A DNA stretch of 64,000 nucleotides from an uncultured Rhizobiaceae group bacterium (GCA_937930845.1 CALHBJ010000008.1:121132-185131); one strand, 5' to 3'; shown: positions 2,547 to 12,987, counted from the first letter of the stretch. A program made the numbers and translations. The notes: generated by a model not told the origin, from the letters alone.

Positions 2547-4004
2547 ATGACCACAACCACGATCAAAAACGGTACAATCGTCACCGCCGATCTCACCTAC
2601 AAAGCCGATGTGCAAATCGAAGATGGGATCATTACGGCAATCGGCCCTAATCTCTCCGGCGGCACGGATTTGGATGCCACCGATTGCTATGTCATGCCCG
2701 GTGGCATTGACCCGCACACCCATCTGGAAATGCCTTTCATGGGTACCTATTCGTCGGATGATTTTGAATCCGGCACCCGTGCGGCATTGTCCGGTGGCAC
2801 GACGATGGTGGTGGACTTTGCCCTGCCCGCGCCTGGCCAATCCCTGCTGGAGGCCATCCAGATGTGGGATAATAAATCCACCCGCGCAAACTGCGACTAT
2901 TCCTTCCACATGGCGATCACCTGGTGGGGTGAACAGGTTTTCAACGAGATGGAAACCGTGGTCAAAGACAAGGGCATCAACACGTTCAAACATTTTCTCG
3001 CCTATAAGGGCGCACTGATGGTGAATGATGATGAATTGTATTCATCGTTTCAGCGCTGCGCAGAACTGGGCGCGACACCCATGGTGCATGCGGAAAACGG
3101 TGATGTGGTGGCCGAACTCTCCGCCAAGCTGTTGGCCGAAGGCAATACGGGACCGGAGGCTCATGCCTATTCGCGCCCACCCCAGGTGGAAGGCGAAGCC
3201 ACCAACCGTGCCATCATGATTGCTGATATGGCAGGGGCGCCGCTTTATGTGGTGCACACATCTTGTGAGGAATCCCATGAAGCGATCCGCCGGGCAAAAC
3301 AGCAAGGCAAGCGGGTCTGGGGCGAGCCGCTTATTCAGCACCTGACGCTCGATGAGAGCGAATATTTCAACAAGGATTGGGACCATGCCGCACGGCGAGT
3401 GATGTCGCCCCCTTTCCGCAATAAGCAACATCAGGATTCTCTTTGGGCGGGGCTGCAATCCGGTTCGCTTTCAGTAGTTGCAACAGACCATTGCGCCTTC
3501 ACCACCGAGCAGAAACGCTATGGTGTTGGAGACTTCACAAAAATCCCCAATGGCACGGGCGGGCTTGAAGACCGCATGCCCATGTTGTGGACCTATGGCG
3601 TTTCAACGGGCCGGTTGACCATGAATGAATTTGTGGCCGTGACCTCCACCAATATTGCGAAAATCATGAACATGTATCCAAAGAAGGGTGCCATTCTGGT
3701 GGGTTCCGATGCGGATATTGTGGTGTGGGATCCCGCCAAGGAAAAAACCATCGCCGCCGACAAGCAGCAGTCGGCCATCGACTATAATGTGTTTGAAGGC
3801 AAACACGTCAAAGGCCTGCCGCGCTATACGCTCTCACGGGGGCATGCGTCGGTGATGGACGGTGAGGTACAAACACAGGAAGGGCACGGCAAATTTGTCA
3901 AACGTACGGCCAATGGCACGGTCAACAAAGCGCTTTCCACCTGGAAAGAACTGACCAACCCCACACCGGTGGAACGCACTGGCATTCCGGCAAGTGGGGT
4001 TTGA
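2547..4004 (+). CDS. hydA: Dihydropyrimidinase
   Basis: PGGIDPHTH, NTFKHF (carboxylated Lys region), MVHAENG, VVHTS, ATDHC motifs; AGGAG RBS. Confidence 0.95.
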   Translation: MTTTTIKNGTIVTADLTYKADVQIEDGIITAIGPNLSGGTDLDATDCYVMPGGIDPHTHLEMPFMGTYSSDDFESGTRAALSGGTTMVVDFALPAPGQSLLEAIQMWDNKSTRANCDYSFHMAITWWGEQVFNEMETVVKDKGINTFKHFLAYKGALMVNDDELYSSFQRCAELGATPMVHAENGDVVAELSAKLLAEGNTGPEAHAYSRPPQVEGEATNRAIMIADMAGAPLYVVHTSCEESHEAIRRAKQQGKRVWGEPLIQHLTLDESEYFNKDWDHAARRVMSPPFRNKQHQDSLWAGLQSGSLSVVATDHCAFTTEQKRYGVGDFTKIPNGTGGLEDRMPMLWTYGVSTGRLTMNEFVAVTSTNIAKIMNMYPKKGAILVGSDADIVVWDPAKEKTIAADKQQSAIDYNVFEGKHVKGLPRYTLSRGHASVMDGEVQTQEGHGKFVKRTANGTVNKALSTWKELTNPTPVERTGIPASGV

Positions 4005-8351: not shown

Positions 8352-9341
8352 ATGAAGAAACTCGCACTCTTGCTTGCTGCCGGGGCGCTGTCGATGACCA
8401 CGGTGATGGCCAATGCTGCCGACAAGGTTACACTACAGCTTAAATGGGTCACGCAGGCCCAGTTCGCCGGTTATTACGTGGCAAAGGACAAAGGCTTCTA
8501 CAAGGAAGAAGACCTCGACATCGAAATCAAACCTGGCGGCCCCGACATTGCGCCAGCCCAGGTTCTGGCTGGCGGTGGTGCTGATGTGGTTCTTGACTGG
8601 ATGCCCTCGGCTCTTGCCACACGGGAAAAAGGCGTACCGCTGGTCAACATTGCCCAGCCGTTCAAATCATCGGGCATGATGCTCACATGTCGCAAGGATT
8701 CCGGCATCAAGACCCCGGCTGATTTCAAAGGAAAAACACTTGGTGTGTGGTTCTTCGGCAATGAATATCCGTTCCTGTCTTGGATGAGCAAACTTGGCAT
8801 TGCCACAGATGGCTCCGCCAATGGCGTTAAGGTTCTGAAACAGGGCTTCAACGTGGACCCAATCCTGCAAAAGCAGGCGGCTTGCGTTTCCACCATGACC
8901 TATAATGAATATTGGCAGATCATTGATGCCGGTTTGAGTGCCGATGACCTGGTGGTTTTCAAATATGAAGATCAAGGCGTGGCAACACTTGAAGACGGCA
9001 TTTACGTGCTGGAAGACAACCTCAAGGACGCGGCGTTTAAAGACCGTATGGTGCGTTTTGTACGTGCATCCATGAAGGGCTGGAAATATGCCGAAGCCAA
9101 TCCCGACGAGGCTGCAGAAATCGTACTGGAAAATGATGCCTCCGGTGCTCAAACCGAAAAACACCAGAAGCGCATGATGGGCGAGATTGCCAAGCTGACC
9201 GCCGGGTCAAATGGCGCACTCGATCCAGCTGATTATGAGCGCACGGTTGCAACATTGCTGGCAGCGGGTTCTGATCCGGTCATCACCAAGGCACCTGAAG
9301 GGGCCTGGACTTCGGAAATTACTGACGCCGCATTGAAATAG
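8352..9341 (+). CDS. ABC substrate-binding protein, NMT1/THI5-like (pyrimidine binding)
   Basis: Signal peptide MKKLALLLAAGAL..A; LQLKWVTQAQFAGYYVA motif; AGGAG RBS. Confidence 0.9.
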   Translation: MKKLALLLAAGALSMTTVMANAADKVTLQLKWVTQAQFAGYYVAKDKGFYKEEDLDIEIKPGGPDIAPAQVLAGGGADVVLDWMPSALATREKGVPLVNIAQPFKSSGMMLTCRKDSGIKTPADFKGKTLGVWFFGNEYPFLSWMSKLGIATDGSANGVKVLKQGFNVDPILQKQAACVSTMTYNEYWQIIDAGLSADDLVVFKYEDQGVATLEDGIYVLEDNLKDAAFKDRMVRFVRASMKGWKYAEANPDEAAEIVLENDASGAQTEKHQKRMMGEIAKLTAGSNGALDPADYERTVATLLAAGSDPVITKAPEGAWTSEITDAALK

Positions 9342-9442
9342 GCGTGTCATTGCCAAACCCAAAACTGAATGTTGGTGAGGGAATTGACGCGACTGCGGGG
9401 CTGATCGATCAGTTTTGAATTGATCCGACCACTTGCAACACG

Positions 9443-9480
9443 AAAAGGGGCGACCACCGGTTTCGGTGGCCGCCCTTTTT
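9443..9480. terminator. Bidirectional intrinsic terminator
   Basis: AAAAGGGGCGACCACCG-GTTT-CGGTGGCCGCCCTTTTT between convergent operons. Confidence 0.8.
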
Positions 9481-9560
9481 GCATGTCAGAGCCCTAGTCC
9501 CCATGTGCCGGGGCTCTTTCACGCAAACTGAAATCAGAAATTTCCGTGAGCGGATTGTGT

Positions 9561-10274
9561 TTAGAGAACCACGATAGGCGAGTTGGACGGGACGCGATTG
9601 TACAGATCAATCACGTCCTGATTGAGCAAACGAACGCAACCGCTGGAAACGGCTTTGCCTATGCTGGAGACTTCGGGCGAACCGTGGAGACGGTAAAGCG
9701 TATCCACATCACCCTGGAAAATATAAAGCGCGCGTGCGCCCAGCGGGTTTTCCAATCCCGGCGGCATGCCGCCATTGCGGGCGCTCCATTTCTCAAGCTC
9801 CGGTTGCCGCTCGATCATTTCGGCTGGCGGGGTCCATTTTGGCCAGGCCCGCTTCCAGGCGACACGCGCCCGGCCCGACCATTCGAAACCGGCTCTGCCA
9901 AGCCCCACACCGTATCGCATGGCGCGGCCTTCCGGCATGGTCCAGTAGAGATGGAAAGAGTTTGTGTCGACCACCACCGTGCCGGGCTTTTCGCCTGTCG
10001 TGTTGGGCACTTCCTTGCGCCAGTATTGAGATTTGATAAGTTTGAGATCAACTGCGGGTATGGGGAAACGTTCGTTCGGTAACGGGCCATATATCTCGCG
10101 ATAATAGGCCGTTTCCTGTCCACGCCGCCGCAAGGCCGACAGGCGGGGACCGCTGCGTTTTCTCGCATTGGAACACCCGGCCAATAAAAGCGCCGCTGCG
10201 CTTGTGGCTCCCAGCATCAATTGTCGGCGTCCCATGTCTGCGCCGGTTGTGTCATTTATGTCCGTAAACTTCAC
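9561..10274 (-). CDS. L,D-transpeptidase (YkuD/ErfK), predicted Tat lipoprotein
   Basis: GRRQLM..LLLAGC (twin-Arg plus lipobox); RYGVGLG, NPLGARALY, LHGS..IGKAVSSGCVRL catalytic motif; start GTG 10274 or ATG 10235. Confidence 0.93.
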   Translation of the reverse strand: MKFTDINDTTGADMGRRQLMLGATSAAALLLAGCSNARKRSGPRLSALRRRGQETAYYREIYGPLPNERFPIPAVDLKLIKSQYWRKEVPNTTGEKPGTVVVDTNSFHLYWTMPEGRAMRYGVGLGRAGFEWSGRARVAWKRAWPKWTPPAEMIERQPELEKWSARNGGMPPGLENPLGARALYIFQGDVDTLYRLHGSPEVSSIGKAVSSGCVRLLNQDVIDLYNRVPSNSPIVVL

Positions 10275-10858
10275 AGCACCACCACCCGGGAACCCAGCGG
10301 CACCCGTTCATATAAATCTGCCACATGCTCATTCAGCATCCGGATGCAGCCATTCGATACGGAACGGCCAATGCTGGAGGGCTGTGTTGTGCCATGAATT
10401 CTGTAATAGGTGTCCCTGCCCCCTTTGTAGAGATAGAGCGCCCGCGCGCCCAAAGGGTTGCCGGGGCCGCCGGGCACGCCACTGGCATATCGGGCATATT
10501 TTTGAGGTTCACGCCTGATCATATTTTGCGTAGGCGTCCAGCTTGGCCATTTCGCCTTGCGTTTGATCTGGGCAGTGCCACGAAAAGAACGGCCGGCCTT
10601 GCCAACACCCACGCCATAGCGGCGCGCGGTACTGCGCGATTGCACCAGGTAGAGAAAATGGTTGTCAGGGTCGACCACTATTGTTCCCGGCGCATATCCG
10701 CGAAAGCGGACCGTTTGTGGTTTGAACCGATCAGCAACCCTAAACGGTTTGCGTTTGCGGCGTTTCTTCGTGTGATGGGCTAAGGCAGTTTCCCCGGCAA
10801 TCACGGGGGCAAGTACAGACGCTAATGCGCCCGCCAGAAATGAACGTTTATCAATCAC
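10271..10858 (-). CDS. L,D-transpeptidase (YkuD/ErfK), Tat-like signal
   Basis: DKRSFL Tat-variant signal; IHGT..IGRSVSNGCIRM; GGAG RBS at 10868-10871. Confidence 0.93.
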   Translation of the reverse strand: MIDKRSFLAGALASVLAPVIAGETALAHHTKKRRKRKPFRVADRFKPQTVRFRGYAPGTIVVDPDNHFLYLVQSRSTARRYGVGVGKAGRSFRGTAQIKRKAKWPSWTPTQNMIRREPQKYARYASGVPGGPGNPLGARALYLYKGGRDTYYRIHGTTQPSSIGRSVSNGCIRMLNEHVADLYERVPLGSRVVVL

Positions 10859-10880
10859 GATAGTCTACTCCAGTAACGTC

Positions 10881-10903
10881 AAAAATTGCGCACCAATTGC
10901 GCA
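10881..10903 (-). terminator. Hairpin plus U-tract between the leader ORF and the first LDT (possible attenuator)
   Basis: Minus strand TGCGCA-ATTGG-TGCGCA-ATTTTT. Confidence 0.4.
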
Positions 10904-10913
10904 GGTTTGATGG

Positions 10914-11279
10914 CTAAAGGAGAATTCGCGGAGGTCTTTTACTGGGTTGGGCGCGTGTCCCGTCCCCACTTGTCAGCGATAAGAATGGCAAGCGCACCAT
11001 CTTCCAGCTTAGGCTGACCGGGTTGGCCTCGCTGACGCTGATATAGGGTGACAGACAAAGATCCACTGTGGTGTCCTTGGAGCCTGTTGGCTCACAACAC
11101 TTTTCACTGGCCTTATGAAATCCGCCCGTTACAGGGGGCACAGGACTGGTTGATTGCGCATCTGCCACCACAGCCGCCGCCAAAATGGGGCTGGTGAGAT
11201 GGCGTGCCATCACCTTGTGCGCACCGGAGGCGGTGAACATGAAAAGCGACAGCATCAAAAAAGTGACATAACGTAACAT
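10914..11279 (-). CDS. Small exported or membrane-targeted Cys-containing protein with C-terminal RPPR; candidate CutF/CruR/DUF2946-like leader
   Basis: Hydrophobic N-terminus, H..KCCEP..LCLSP, ends QPSKRPPRILL*; 55 nt upstream of the LDT start. Confidence 0.6.
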   Translation of the reverse strand: MLRYVTFLMLSLFMFTASGAHKVMARHLTSPILAAAVVADAQSTSPVPPVTGGFHKASEKCCEPTGSKDTTVDLCLSPYISVSEANPVSLSWKMVRLPFLSLTSGDGTRAQPSKRPPRILL

Positions 11280-11285
11280 GAGGAT

Positions 11286-11324
11286 TTTGTAGCACTAAAA
11301 CACTGAATGTCAGATGTATGTGAC
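11286..11324 (-). promoter_or_regulatory. Putative sigma70 promoter (possibly leaderless) with overlapping palindrome
   Basis: Minus strand CTGACA-N16-TACAAA-6 nt-ATG, no SD; GTCA-N8-TGAC palindrome at 11309-11324 overlaps the -35. Confidence 0.35.
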
Positions 11325-11354
11325 CACACAAATTCGTGAGCGGCCTTAAAAAAC

Positions 11355-12197
11355 TCAGATTCGGTCGCTGATTGCTGGATAGACGCCCAGGATACGTTTT
11401 TCCGCGCAGAAGAAATCCATCTCTTCCAGTGCCAAACGGACATTTTCCTGTTCTGGATGCCCTTCAATGTCGGCGTAGAACAGTGTTGCGGTAAATGTTC
11501 CACCCAATTGGTAGCTCTCCAGCTTGGTCATGTTGACCCCATTGGTGGCGAACCCGCCCATCACTTTGTACAGCGCTGCGGGTACGTTTTTCACACGGAA
11601 CACAAATGTGGTGATGGCGTCCCCTGCCTCGACAGGCGGAATTTGCGCTTCCCGCGATAGAATAACGAACCGCGTGGTGTTGTGATCGGCGTCTTCCACA
11701 TCACGTTTCAGAATATTGAGACCATATAATTCGGCTGCGAGTTCAGGCGCCAGGGCGGCGGCTTGCTTGTCCTGACGATCCGCGATCAGCCGTGCTGCCC
11801 CTGCCGTATCGCTGGCCGTTACCGCTTCCCAGCGGTGCTCACGGATGATGTTGCGGCACTGGCCCAGCCCATGAACATGGGAATAGACCGTCTTGATGTC
11901 TTCAATGCCCACACCCGGCAATGCCATGAGCTGAAAGCGAATGGGCAGGAAATATTCCCCAACAATGTGAAACCCTGAATGGGGCAAAAGATGGTGGATG
12001 TCGGCAACGCGACCGGCAATTGTGTTTTCGATCGGGATCATGGCCAGTTCAGCGACGCCCGATTGCAGCGCGTCGAAAGCATCTTCGAACGTTGCACAGG
12101 GCACCGGCGTCATTTCTGGATAAACATTGCGACAGGCGGTATCGGAATTCGCCCCCGGTTCGCCCTGGAAGGCGATGTTGCCAGTTTTATCGTTCAT
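11355..12197 (-). CDS. pheA: Prephenate dehydratase
   Basis: FQGEPGANS, IPIENT, SHVHGLGQC, NTTRF, NMTKLESY ACT domain. Confidence 0.95.
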   Translation of the reverse strand: MNDKTGNIAFQGEPGANSDTACRNVYPEMTPVPCATFEDAFDALQSGVAELAMIPIENTIAGRVADIHHLLPHSGFHIVGEYFLPIRFQLMALPGVGIEDIKTVYSHVHGLGQCRNIIREHRWEAVTASDTAGAARLIADRQDKQAAALAPELAAELYGLNILKRDVEDADHNTTRFVILSREAQIPPVEAGDAITTFVFRVKNVPAALYKVMGGFATNGVNMTKLESYQLGGTFTATLFYADIEGHPEQENVRLALEEMDFFCAEKRILGVYPAISDRI

Positions 12198-12249
12198 GAT
12201 TGGTCGATTGCCCTAAGAAATGCGGATTGAGTGTGCGAACAAGGTGCGA

Positions 12250-12987
12250 CTAGTTGTCCAACATGGCCCTTGCCCGTTCAAGATCGGCGGGAGTATCGAC
12301 ACCTAGCGGAACAGTGTCAACGAGGGCGGCATCAATGCGCATTCCGTCTTCGAGGGCGCGCAATTGCTCAAGCTTTTCGCGCAATTCCAATGCAGATGGC
12401 GGCAGGCTGACAAATCGCGCCAGGGCAGAGCGCCGCCAGGCGTAGAGGCCGATATGGTGATAAAGCGGGCCATCGCCATAGGGCGCGGTGGCACGGGTGA
12501 AATAAAGCGCCCGCAAACAGTTTTCAGCGCTCGGCGTTCCCACAAGTTTCACCACATTGGGGTTGGCCCTTTCTTCTTCCACAACTATTTCTGTTGCCAA
12601 TGTGGCGAGAGCCACGTCCTTGTTGTGCAAGGGAATCAAGCTGGCACGTATCGACATGCGGTCAATTGTCGGCAGATCGCCCTGGACATTGACGATGGTT
12701 TCAATTTCGCCCTTGGGGTCCAGTTTCTCAATGGCCTCAAATATCCTGTCTGACCCGGAAGGGTGGTCGGCGCGGGTTAAAACCGCTTCCCCGCCATGGC
12801 TTTGCACCGCCTTCATCACCTCAACAGAATCAGTGGCAACGACAACCGGTCCCACATCGGCCTCCTGGGCCCGTTTCATCACCTGCACGATCATGGGCAA
12901 ACCGGCGATATCCGCCATGGGTTTGTCTGGCAATCGTGTTGAAGCCATGCGCGCGGGGACCAAAACGAGGTTCTTGGAAAATGACAT
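12250..12987 (-). CDS. kdsB: 3-deoxy-manno-octulosonate cytidylyltransferase
   Basis: [45 protein letters not shown]. Confidence 0.96.

Follow-up and report, generated by a model that had tools for sequence, protein, structure and literature searches.

A conserved, cysteine-bearing leader ORF with a C-terminal Pro-Pro motif upstream of L,D-transpeptidase genes in marine alphaproteobacteria

The window (a 64,000-nucleotide stretch, CALHBJ010000008.1:121132-185131, from the assembly GCA_937930845.1 of an uncultured Rhizobiaceae group bacterium) carries two adjacent YkuD L,D-transpeptidase genes (LDT1 and LDT2), preceded by a small open reading frame with a promoter-like region and followed by a strong terminator-like hairpin (Table 1). 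The small ORF ends 55 nt upstream of the GTG start codon of LDT1, and the stop codon of LDT1 overlaps the start codon of LDT2 as GTGA, in agreement with the distance and the gene coupling given in the original prediction for this locus. Its description of the ORF itself was also verified in the sequence: 121 aa, a hydrophobic N-terminus, a His/Cys patch (H55, C61 and C62 in FHKASEKCCEP and C75 in DLCLSP) and the end KRPPRILL-stop. The label Tat-type for the LDTs was correct as far as the Tat-like N-terminus is concerned, but the twin arginine of LDT1 reads KR in the window versus RR in the orthologues. The mature end of LDT1 begins with AHHTKK and its closest PDB entry is 6v45 (E 1e-64); LDT2 carries an RRQLML motif and a LAGC lipobox. 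A link of the locus to aromatic amino-acid or LPS genes was considered and rejected, because pheA and kdsB show no conserved synteny with the cassette. No other credible leader emerged when the entire window was scanned for ORFs combining a signal peptide with a C-terminal PP.

Table 1. Positions of the genes, motifs and predicted RNA elements of the leader-LDT locus in the window
Feature	Position	Strand	Basis
Operator-like inverted repeat TCACGAATTTGTGT, one mismatch versus the consensus TCACR-N4-YGTGA	11326..11339	-	Family motif
-35-like hexamer CTGACA	11308..11313	-	Promoter scan; 16 nt from TACAAA
-10-like hexamer TACAAA, T at -12 and A at -11 from the ATG	11286..11291	-	ATG-anchored alignment
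Leader ORF, 121 aa (stop 10916-10914)	10914..11279	-	ORF call and alignment A1
Signal-peptide-like N-terminus, ~residues 1-20, MLRYVTFLMLSLFMFTASGA then HK	11220..11279	-	Hydrophobicity, AlphaFold2 helix
C61 and C62 codons (CC motif)	11094..11099	-	Family motif counts
C75 codon, invariant Cys, 41 residues ahead of P116	11055..11057	-	Alignment A1, spacing counts
R115-P116-P117 codons (AGA CCT CCG), candidate pause/arrest site	10929..10937	-	PP invariant in family
CGCGA (P117/R118 codons), predicted to pair with UCGUG 10860-10856 and mask the LDT1 GUG start	10926..10930	-	MFE and centroid
Predicted anti-SD CUCC in L120/L121 codons, +13 to +16 from the first Pro codon	10919..10922	-	MFE and centroid
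Inner hairpin TGCGCA-ATTGG-TGCGCA, nested in the SD-masking helix, then ATTTTT	10887..10903	-	Scan and fold
3' arm of the outer helix (UUUGA, GUUA, GGAG)	10868..10883	-	Fold prediction
LDT1, YkuD L,D-transpeptidase, 195 aa, GTG start	10271..10858	-	Pfam YkuD E 2e-25
LDT2, YkuD L,D-transpeptidase, 237 aa	9561..10274	-	Pfam YkuD E 2.5e-19
Strong terminator-like hairpin ending the operon, 12 bp (10 GC) and U-rich tail	9448..9475	-	Terminator scan

The leader family became visible solely via its synteny with LDT1. A homology search with the window leader as a single ORF gave no match, the ORF matched nothing in Pfam or NCBIfam (including DUF2946 and CopL), and a metagenome profile scan with a narrow leader alignment returned one locus. 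We gathered 80 loci by LDT1 orthologues, from several families of marine Hyphomicrobiales and Rhodobacteraceae. A leader-type ORF of 100-130 aa is located directly upstream of the LDT1 orthologue in ~50 of these 80 loci, and the LDT1-LDT2 tandem occurs in ~24 of them. Three look-ups seeded with leader homologues, and not with an LDT, all led to a YkuD gene immediately downstream. Such leaders are nearly invisible to annotation: a set of 5.8 billion clustered proteins yielded only seven matches, labelled 'hypothetical', and one of 1.84 billion proteins only 28 representatives. Judged by sequence comparison, the leader family is conserved and previously unannotated, and the ORF in the window is more than a chance feature, as LDT1 orthologues elsewhere are preceded by the same architecture.

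In alignment A1 (40 members) the residues C75, P116 and P117 are invariant, at ~15% identity across genera for the other positions. The distance between the equivalent of C75 and the first Pro is 41 residues in 47 of the 49 members that contain a CxxxC motif, and also in the window, unlike the length of the N-terminal part, which ranges between 42 and 66 residues. Four cysteines belong to the family consensus. Of 80 distinct members, 64 contain CC, in most cases 55-56 residues ahead of the first Pro, and 49 contain CxxxC; in a few members CC is missing or only one Cys is present; the window leader has three cysteines (CC and C75, the first Cys of CxxxC, without the second) plus H55. The Pro motif reads [L/F]-[R/K]-P-P-[I/K/N/R], with R or K directly before PP in 71 of 80 members, and is located two residues from the stop in 62 of 80 and four in the subgroup of the window. 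The homologue comparison proposed with the original prediction thus found the Cys, the PP and the position upstream of LDTs, at a fixed and short distance, all conserved, with the Cys-Pro distance of 41 in nearly every member.

A hydrophobic N-terminus is common to all leader members, and was judged to be a signal peptide by inspection and by the AlphaFold2 helix. For the window leader AlphaFold2 returned a confident helix at residues 2-19 only, with a pLDDT of ~50 for the remainder, and the mature part is accordingly predicted to be disordered, without a predicted fold. Between leaders of close relatives dN/dS ranges from 0.05 to 0.66, and the peptide sequence is therefore under selection. 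Values far under 1 also agree with an independent function of the peptide. The comparisons point to a real, conserved, Cys-bearing leader peptide with a C-terminal [R/K]PP that is predicted to be exported.

The region upstream of the leader suggests how it may be transcribed. The sole promoter-like site that the scan reported between 9300 and 11700 lies just upstream of the leader ATG, and no SD precedes this ATG in the window. Likewise, 50 of 53 leader starts lack an SD and 42 of 53 have TA at -13 to -10; in the ATG-anchored alignment T-12 and A-11 are each found in 64% and C-1 in 71% of the loci. The -10-like TA at -12/-11 would place the start of transcription at or next to the leader ATG, and the leader is thus probably made from a leaderless mRNA, as was originally proposed. 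ECF-sigma (GGAAC-N16-17-CGTT) and CtrA (TTAA-N7-TTAA) promoter readings were dropped since their spacings do not fit. Roseibium album RNA contigs cover the 3' half of the leader, LDT1 and LDT2 at a depth of 4-5, which is too low for placing a 5' end, and could stem from carried-over DNA; the window itself was found in one run only, of marine metagenome DNA.

We also found an operator-like inverted repeat further upstream. In the window the repeat begins at -60 from the leader ATG, which puts its centre at about -53.5. Its start is found between 59 and 64 nt ahead of the ATG in ~44 of 53 loci, in most cases at -60 to -62, against a background frequency of 0.33 per kb. The repeat is also found upstream of LDT1 in loci without a leader. 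No conserved neighbouring regulator gene accounting for it was found, no match to TCACR-N4-YGTGA was found in the literature, and the 64-kb window holds no other exact copy.

In the fold predictions the 3' end of the leader ORF masks the SD of LDT1. This SD (GGAG, 10871-10868, 9 nt before the GUG) pairs with CUCC at 10922-10919 as one segment of a nested helix, in which CUCC/GGAG, UAGC/GUUA and UCAAA/UUUGA are arranged around the inner hairpin and CGCGA/UCGUG is added (MFE -23.7 kcal/mol, z -2.5 to -3.4). The contact between CTCC and GGAG had been foreseen as a weak pairing of 4-5 bp; the contact itself stands, its isolated and weak character does not. The LDT SD was paired in the MFE structure of all 48 non-redundant loci (48/48), the mean fold z was -3.4 across loci (84% below -2; window -3.36), and 83% of the 48 loci have the SD partner within +1 to +21 nt of the first Pro codon. 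In about one third of the loci the PP codons are themselves the partner of the SD, CCUCC being a potential anti-SD, and in other subgroups the last codons together with the stop form the anti-SD.

RNAalifold found no consensus structure on a plain MAFFT alignment of 32 spacers, because the 3' arms do not share one register and the position of the anti-SD differs among the subgroups. This test was replaced by fold z-scores per locus, by the energies of cognate versus non-cognate helix arms and by a register-fixed permutation. Cognate arms paired at -12.4 kcal/mol, versus -8.6 for non-cognate and -7.1 for shuffled arms. The register-fixed covariation test gave a modest signal (the observed value was reached by 4 of 2000 permutations), and one fixed register over all 47 loci a weak one (51.8% paired versus 48.2% permuted). 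After removal of the first 19 nt, which mimics a ribosome at PP, GGAG was unpaired in the centroid structure of the window. A search of Rfam with positions 9000-12500 returned only a chance-level match to RcsR1 (E 0.36), and the spacer is therefore not a known RNA family.

The hairpin and U-tract of the original prediction are present in the sequence, but its attenuator reading did not survive the comparison of loci. According to that reading the segment 10903-10881 would be an intrinsic terminator, or a CruR-like Rho site, that depends on leader translation, in line with the terminator-like site that the scan reports in the window (a 6-bp stem, then ATTTTT) and with the use of Rho-dependent termination by CruR (PMC9426467). 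An inner GC-rich hairpin (median 6 bp) was found in 48 of 49 loci, yet only 3 of the 49 have a U-tract behind it, and the U-tract of the window pairs with UCAAA and is thus part of the outer helix. Moreover, the spacers measure 33-79 nt in all but one locus and, at 55-75 nt and with a high degree of structure, are unlike the 162-nt intergenic region with Rho-dependent termination of CruR (PMC9426467); a CruR-type Rho mechanism is unlikely because the spacer has 55 nt and is structured. We consider control by transcription attenuation hardly credible.

The cassette appears to share the architecture and logic of CutF of R. capsulatus. CutF has 118 aa, a Sec signal, the motif C69xxxC73, the C-terminal end PPPRL-stop and 41 residues between C73 and P114; the Tat-exported CutO has its SD shielded by a stem-loop, and stalling lasts longer with Cu (PMC9973294; PMC8456105; bioRxiv 10.1101/2025.02.05.636593). 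The leader family resembles it in size (121 aa in the window) and Sec-type signal, in a central Cys motif (CxxxC in most members, of which the window leader has the first Cys), in a run of prolines that 2-4 residues separate from the stop (RPPRILL-stop or RPPIS-stop), in the Cys-to-first-Pro distance (C75 to P116 in the window), in the short spacer with a predicted stem-loop that shields the SD of a downstream Tat-exported enzyme, and, as read from the sequence, in a design for action in cis. In its 121 aa, hydrophobic N-terminus, PP at 116-117 of 121, 55-nt spacer and predicted SD-shielding stem-loop between leader and gene, the leader agrees with CutF-like proteins as defined operationally by Ozturk et al. 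2023. Unlike CutF, to which no sequence similarity was detected, the leader family has an extra CC ~14 residues upstream of CxxxC, RPP[I/K/N/R] in place of PPP, a leaderless-type promoter with a conserved operator of its own, and PP or last codons that themselves are the predicted anti-SD; its targets are peptidoglycan L,D-transpeptidases, whereas the cutFOG operon encodes a multicopper oxidase. In Ahrensia marina a CutF-like gene immediately precedes YkuD-DUF411-YkuD (PMC8456105 Table S3); its signal-peptide cleavage context differs from that of the L041 leader. YkuD genes are found in Cu-homeostasis clusters of related bacteria.

The ORF could instead encode a real periplasmic Cys-protein (a metallochaperone, or a partner or inhibitor of the LDTs) that senses nothing, the helix merely coupling translation at a fixed ratio. 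The selection on the peptide agrees with this, and a terminating ribosome would melt the anti-SD too, the stop being 2-4 codons after PP. The exact 41-residue Cys-Pro spacing, against free length elsewhere, and an invariant PP at the extreme C-terminus are nevertheless hard to reconcile with a folded periplasmic protein. Identity across genera is only ~15% and no fold is predicted; in addition, no mature protein is detectable for CutF, a leader of the same layout whose action is confined to cis (PMC9973294). We regard a periplasmic protein of this kind as quite improbable.

Membership of the DUF2946/CruR type, as originally suggested, was not borne out: none of the 40 members of A1 matched PF11162 in hmmscan even at E<=10, although HMMER filters may drop very weak matches, and neither CXXC nor RAPP was found. 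The remark that RPPR is not the canonical RAPP did hold, since no member has RAPP. CruR of Bordetella pertussis is likewise an exported upstream ORF and the first gene of its operon; a constant distance separates its Cys motif from a C-terminal Arg-...-Pro-Pro, which the stop follows after a few residues (PMC9426467). The leader family differs from it in having CC/CxxxC instead of CXXC, RPP instead of RAPP, and a Cys-Pro spacing that is equally fixed, though at 41 intervening-plus-one residues versus 45 intervening residues in CruR (PMC9426467). Downstream, YkuD LDTs take the place of the TonB-dependent transporter and of the operon of copper-homeostasis genes that marks the CruR type.

The only curated family with any sequence signal to the leaders was CopL (NCBIfam CopL_fam, NF033807), which weakly matched 8 of 40 members and, over its full length, the relative P0025, all far below the 40-bit cut-off (best score P0025, 20.2 bits, E 7e-4, residues 1-118 versus profile positions 2-128 of 129). 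These matches suggest distant relatedness only; the window ORF was unmatched, and CopL of Xanthomonas and Stenotrophomonas, upstream of copA, precedes a copper oxidase and not LDTs. CopL is a cis-acting, Cu-related leader that has been placed among the CutF-like proteins (PMC9973294).

A more general likeness exists to SecM, ApdA, ApdP, ApcA, MifM and VemP, which, in the outline given in PMC12992588 and PMC10987492, are small exported or membrane-inserted leaders with the arrest motif at the extreme C-terminus (a candidate motif in our family) that control a downstream gene through melting of an SD-masking structure (here a predicted one). The RAPP/RGPP/RAGP core of such arrest peptides is absent from the leader family, which has no Ala or Gly between Arg and Pro-Pro; the verified arrest motifs are RAPP, RGPP, RAGP and PPP, and RPP-I/R is not among them (PMC12992588, PMC9426467, bioRxiv 2025). 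The family further differs from RAPP-type arrest peptides in its invariant Cys ruler and in downstream genes that are unrelated to protein localisation. The combination of signal peptide, C-terminal Pro motif and SD-masking helix, as in SecM, MifM and VemP (PMC12992588; PMC9973294), would suit a SecM-like secretion monitor, in which Sec pulling frees the pause and LDT levels rise when export is compromised, independently of the cysteines. A pure force sensor, however, would have no need of an invariant Cys kept at one distance, and the genes under control encode Tat substrates that play no part in export; we consider a secretion monitor very improbable.

The ORF, its signal peptide, the Cys, the PP, the 41-residue ruler and the position upstream of the LDTs are conserved, and a ribosome at PP would have the predicted SD-masking structure within its footprint. 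The best explanation, to which we assign a probability of roughly 0.6, is a self-contained cassette (operator, promoter, leaderless leader ORF, SD-masking helix and LDT1-LDT2) in which the dwell time of the ribosome at PP is set by a periplasmic cue and unmasks the SD of LDT1. Transcription would start at or next to the leader ATG, where the promoter geometry is consistent with a leaderless mRNA, and would likely be modulated by a putative factor that binds TCACR-N4-YGTGA around -53. The leader would be exported co-translationally via its signal peptide, and peptide-bond formation would be intrinsically slow once the ribosome has reached R115-P116-P117, the candidate pause site. At that moment the peptidyl-transferase centre would be 41 residues away from C75 and 54-55 from C61/C62, which would place these cysteines right beyond the exit tunnel, at the translocon or periplasmic side. 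A thiol-reactive cue in the periplasm could then act on the cysteines and alter the pulling force on the nascent chain, and with it the dwell time at PP. A ribosome held at PP would cover about the next 13-16 nt of the mRNA, including the CUCC and CGCGA partners of the SD and the GUG, so that a long dwell would open the helix and allow translation of LDT1, with LDT2 following by translational coupling through the GTGA overlap; after a short dwell the helix would re-form and the LDTs would be kept low. By analogy, the cue may prolong the pause, as in CutF, or shorten it, as in CruR. Any terminating ribosome also opens the helix, and simple translational coupling would therefore explain part of the structure.

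The cue of the proposed cassette would most likely be copper, with the disulfide or redox state as an alternative. Copper inhibits LDTs, according to Peters et al. 2018 as cited in PMC12729407. The same cassette and dwell mechanism could, however, respond to the thiol-disulfide status of the periplasm: DsbA-dependent oxidation of CC/CxxxC would pull on the chain and release the pause, and reducing or mis-oxidising conditions would prolong it. A four-Cys consensus exceeds the needs of a single CxxxC metal site, LDTs need a reduced catalytic cysteine (PMC12729407), and RAPP-type leaders with conserved Cys pairs upstream of DsbA/thioredoxin genes have been described (PMC12992588). On the other hand, one Cys alone is invariant and the window member has three, some relatives weakly match the metal-binding regulator family CopL, and there is the association of YkuD genes with Cu-homeostasis clusters mentioned above. 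Thiol-disulfide sensing in place of copper sensing is, in our view, an unlikely reading that still deserves attention.

A broader reading of the dwell mechanism is that the leaders form a new family of leaderless, exported nascent-peptide sensors that connect a thiol-reactive cue to LDT synthesis, with CCU-CCN codons doubling as anti-SD and the cassette placed under a dedicated TCACR-N4-YGTGA-binding factor; we put this forward tentatively, at a little short of even odds. Under this broader reading the family could be recognised by the signature CC...CxxDC-x36-[R/K]PP[I/K/N/R]-x1-3-stop with its 41-residue Cys-to-Pro ruler, a definition we hold to be quite possible and still provisional. The further idea that the cue, most plausibly copper, poisons the catalytic cysteine of the LDTs is plausible to about the same degree, and should be taken as a suggestion.

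Alphaproteobacterial LDTs build much of the cell wall and anchor outer-membrane proteins. To our knowledge, metal homeostasis and protein export are the only processes to which nascent-chain sensors like CutF and CruR have been linked up to now; if the proposed mechanism is true, this would be the first such sensor with cell-wall cross-linking enzymes as its target, and periplasmic copper or thiol stress would be directly linked to the supply of LDTs in alphaproteobacteria. The near-invisibility of the family implies that short regulatory ORFs of this type are systematically missed by annotation. The 41-residue ruler, common to CutF and the leader family without detectable homology, amounts to a structural prediction on the position of the sensing Cys relative to ribosome and translocon, and the conserved operator TCACR-N4-YGTGA would define the regulon of a putative transcription factor.

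The 121-aa leader ORF lies directly upstream of two genes encoding YkuD L,D-transpeptidases (LDT1 and LDT2), and every sequence detail of the original prediction (the hydrophobic N-terminus, the Cys patch, the KRPPRILL* ending, the 55-nt spacer, the hairpin with ATTTTT, CTCC and GGAG) was found in place. The ORF had no match in Pfam, NCBIfam or Rfam, and used as a single query it found nothing among 5.8 billion proteins. Around 50 of the 80 loci (L001-L080) that were retrieved with LDT1 from species-representative genomes (marine Rhizobiaceae, Hoeflea, Lentilitoribacter, Roseibium/Stappiaceae, Ahrensia, Aurantimonas, some Mesorhizobium/Aminobacter and two Rhodobacteraceae) carry an ORF of 100-130 aa immediately 5' of LDT1, which begins like a signal peptide, contains cysteines and ends in ...[L/F][R/K]PP[I/K/N/R]x(1-3)*. 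One such leader (L018, ...LKRPPRHVL*) was also recovered by tblastn with the window ORF, and in the reverse direction all three look-ups seeded with leader homologues showed a YkuD gene directly downstream. A profile search of the 5.8 billion clustered proteins yielded 7 family matches, none of which has a Pfam domain or a name other than 'hypothetical'; HMMER, run exhaustively on 1.84 billion representatives, yielded 28 (each 82-122 aa long and of identical layout), many of which end in VDLRPPIS*; the leader family is small and almost unannotated. The genes for KdsB and prephenate dehydratase (window 11355-12987) are syntenic with the cassette in none of the 80 related loci and its upstream neighbours vary between loci. 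The leader-LDT unit is therefore self-contained and has moved as one piece.

Features of the leader-LDT locus and its predicted RNA helix
Feature	Position	Strand	Remark
kdsB	12987-12250	minus	first in listed gene order
pheA (prephenate dehydratase)	12197-11355	minus	between kdsB and leader ORF
TCACR-N4-YGTGA repeat, window copy	11339-11326	minus	one mismatch
Leader ORF, 121 aa	11279-10914	minus	hydrophobic N-terminus; FHKASEKCCEP...DLCLSP; ending KRPPRILL*
Pro-Pro (PP) codons	10929-10934		CCU-CCN (potential anti-SD); also L010, L017-L021, L029, L035, L040-L049, L069
CTCC	10922-10919	minus	leader 3' end
Inner spacer hairpin	10903-10887	minus	followed by ATTTTT
GGAG (LDT1 SD)	10871-10868	minus	upstream of LDT1 GUG
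LDT1, YkuD L,D-transpeptidase	10858-10271	minus	55-nt spacer from leader
LDT1 LAHHT	10771-10785		LDT1 residues about 25-29
LDT2, YkuD L,D-transpeptidase	10274-9561	minus	overlaps LDT1 as GTGA
Strong terminator-like hairpin	9475-9448	minus	last element, after LDT2
Helix CUCC:GGAG	10922-10919 : 10871-10868	minus	predicted fold
Helix UAGC:GUUA and UCAAA:UUUGA		minus	predicted fold; enclosing inner hairpin
Helix CGCGA:UCGUG	10930-10926 : 10860-10856	minus	predicted fold; covers LDT1 GUG start

Translation of LDT2 could begin at the GTG overlapping the LDT1 stop or 13 codons further on, at an ATG. From this ATG the protein reads RRQLMLGATSAAALLLAGCS, in which a lipobox comes after a twin-arginine motif, so that LDT2 is probably a lipoprotein exported by Tat. 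Among solved structures, PDB 6v45 is closest to LDT1 (10271-10858; E 1e-64); it is deposited as 'probable carnitine operon oxidoreductase CaiA', a name that looks wrong for an L,D-transpeptidase of YkuD fold.

The homologues bear out the predicted conservation of a cysteine, the C-terminal PP and the position next to LDT genes. In a 40-member alignment the identity to the window ORF was only ~15%, yet C75, P116 and P117 were invariant, and the consensus of the leader reads signal peptide ... CC - x12-14 - CxxDC - x36 - [R/K]PP. The invariant cysteine and the first proline are 41 residues apart in 47 of the 49 CxxxC members (range 40-42), as well as in the window ORF and most atypical members, unlike the segment N-terminal to CC, which varies in length from 42 to 66 residues. 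Of the 80 members, 71 have R or K before PP, and in 62 PP lies 2 residues from the stop (4 residues in the subgroup of the window). Among cultured carriers, Ahrensia sp. R2A130 shares the KRPPR subtype of the window, and the RPPIS or PPNS subtypes occur in Roseibium album CECT 5095, Hoeflea poritis E7-10, Nitratireductor sp. XY-223 and Aurantimonas marina SW136. The third codon positions of R-P-P vary freely, so that conservation acts at the amino-acid level, and dN/dS values of 0.05-0.66 between close relatives show, at the level of sequence evolution, that the leader ORF is translated. With a shallow alignment as input, AlphaFold2 was confident only for residues 2-19 (an N-terminal helix), the remainder having a pLDDT of ~50.

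When sequences were anchored on the leader ATG (53 starts), 50 of the starts were found to lack a Shine-Dalgarno sequence (SD), and T-12, A-11 and C-1 were present in 64%, 64% and 71% of the loci, respectively. In the window the promoter-like elements are CTGACA-N16-TACAAA-N6-ATG. With this geometry of the -10 element, transcription would begin on the A of the ATG and give the leaderless mRNA that had been proposed, for which the comparison provides good support, not proof. We also found a 14-bp inverted repeat, TCACR-N4-YGTGA, that begins 59-64 nt 5' of the ATG (mostly at -60 to -62) in ~44 of the 53 loci, against a background frequency of 0.33 per kb. The repeat also occurs 5' of LDT1 in leader-less loci (L020, L053, L059, L066 and L078) and therefore belongs to the LDT promoter, with the leader as an added layer; it marks a putative LDT-specific operator for a transcription factor, although neither the literature nor the neighbouring genes pointed to a particular one.

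The LDT1 SD was paired in the minimum-energy fold of all 48 non-redundant loci, and in 83% of these it pairs with a segment at +1 to +21 nt from the first Pro codon. This partner consists either of the PP codons, which are usually CCU-CCN and thus read CCUCC, a perfect anti-SD, or of the final sense codons together with the stop codon (e.g. UUCCUGAUUU with AAAUCAGGAG). The PP codons themselves are the partner in about one third of the loci, so that there the same nucleotides are predicted to serve as anti-SD and as candidate arrest site. Enclosed by the helix is an inner hairpin rich in GC (median 6 bp). Compared with dinucleotide shuffles, fold energies were far lower: z averaged -3.4 and was below -2 in 84% of the loci, and the window gave -3.36, or -2.5 when a slightly longer stretch was folded. 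Cognate helix arms (-12.4 kcal/mol) paired more stably than did arms of different loci (-8.6) or shuffled ones (-7.1). In a subgroup picked solely on stop-codon pairing, positions beyond the stop paired more often than with permuted partners, the observed value being reached in 4 of 2000 permutations, with changes on both sides at k=3 and k=7. Deletion of the first 19 nt, which mimics a ribosome on PP, left GGAG unpaired in the centroid structure of the window. Ribosomes protect the mRNA for ~13-16 nt past the first nucleotide of the P site, and with P116 in the P site CUCC lies at +13 to +16. The hairpin and U-tract in the spacer had originally been read as part of a possible attenuator; a U-tract follows the inner hairpin in only 3 of 49 loci and in the window forms part of the outer helix, so terminator-based attenuation is not the conserved mechanism.

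Two Rhodobacteraceae loci (L075 and L080) have a different-looking leader before the LDT1 orthologue (at about 3663-3962; His-rich, C-x9-C, terminus PRRPPPRTFF*), of which the PPP-R ending resembles that of CutF, a leader-type regulator of Rhodobacter capsulatus. The TCACR-N4-YGTGA operator repeat (at -52) and a predicted SD-masking helix are present, which suggests that several leader subtypes converge on LDT1.

A translational switch of the CutF type is the best-supported reading of the cassette. The conserved parts and their geometry are observations, from which we infer the pause, its cue and the polarity of that cue. The exported nascent leader would pause the ribosome at R-P-P, for a time set by what befalls the cysteines. 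The ribosomal exit tunnel holds ~30-40 residues, and during the pause the cysteines, at 41-55 residues from the peptidyl-transferase centre, would be just past it. The paused ribosome would physically occupy the anti-SD, so that LDT1 would be translated, and LDT2 would follow by coupling to LDT1. Rivals to this account are thiol-disulfide sensing, plain translational coupling and a Sec monitor. Copper is the leading candidate cue, because CutF shares the layout and the 41-residue spacing (C73 to P114, as for C75 to P116; PMC8456105, bioRxiv 10.1101/2025.02.05.636593), because several leader relatives match the CopL family of metal-binding regulators (CopL_fam) weakly but colinearly, under the curated cut-off, because copper inhibits LDTs (Peters et al. 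2018, as cited in PMC12729407), and because in Ahrensia marina a CutF-like protein (A0A0N0VLI8) is encoded directly 5' of YkuD-unknown-DUF411-YkuD-cytochrome c (PMC8456105 Table S3). Other rows of that table place YkuD genes within Aurantimonas copper-resistance clusters; a link between LDTs and copper is not discussed in the text of that paper, and in the literature searched on CutF/CruR-type leaders, where LDTs are not discussed as targets, the Ahrensia row is the sole trace. More speculatively, the mature LDT1 could itself bind Cu(II) through an N-terminal His pair, in an ATCUN-like or histidine-brace-like site. After the Tat signal, the chain of most LDT1 orthologues starts with AHH(T/S)(K/A)(K/R), and most loci with the leader have the AHH start, as do 7 of the 27 without it.

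Of the proposed likeness to CutF and CruR (DUF2946, Bordetella), the architecture stood: the leader has the features by which Ozturk et al. define 'CutF-like' proteins (<150 aa, signal peptide, C-terminal PP, short spacer and a predicted stem-loop over the SD), and in function the cassette would work like CutF, family membership being a separate question. The DUF2946 label did not stand, since the family gave no match to that profile and differs in CXXC, RAPP and genomic context; the long Rho-dependent intergenic region of CruR (PMC9426467) is absent as well. The system is of a known kind, in which an SD is unmasked by an exported nascent leader with Cys and Pro motifs, and what its sequences indicate as likely to be new are the family itself, its motif, the target class and the putative operator, together with a probably leaderless start.
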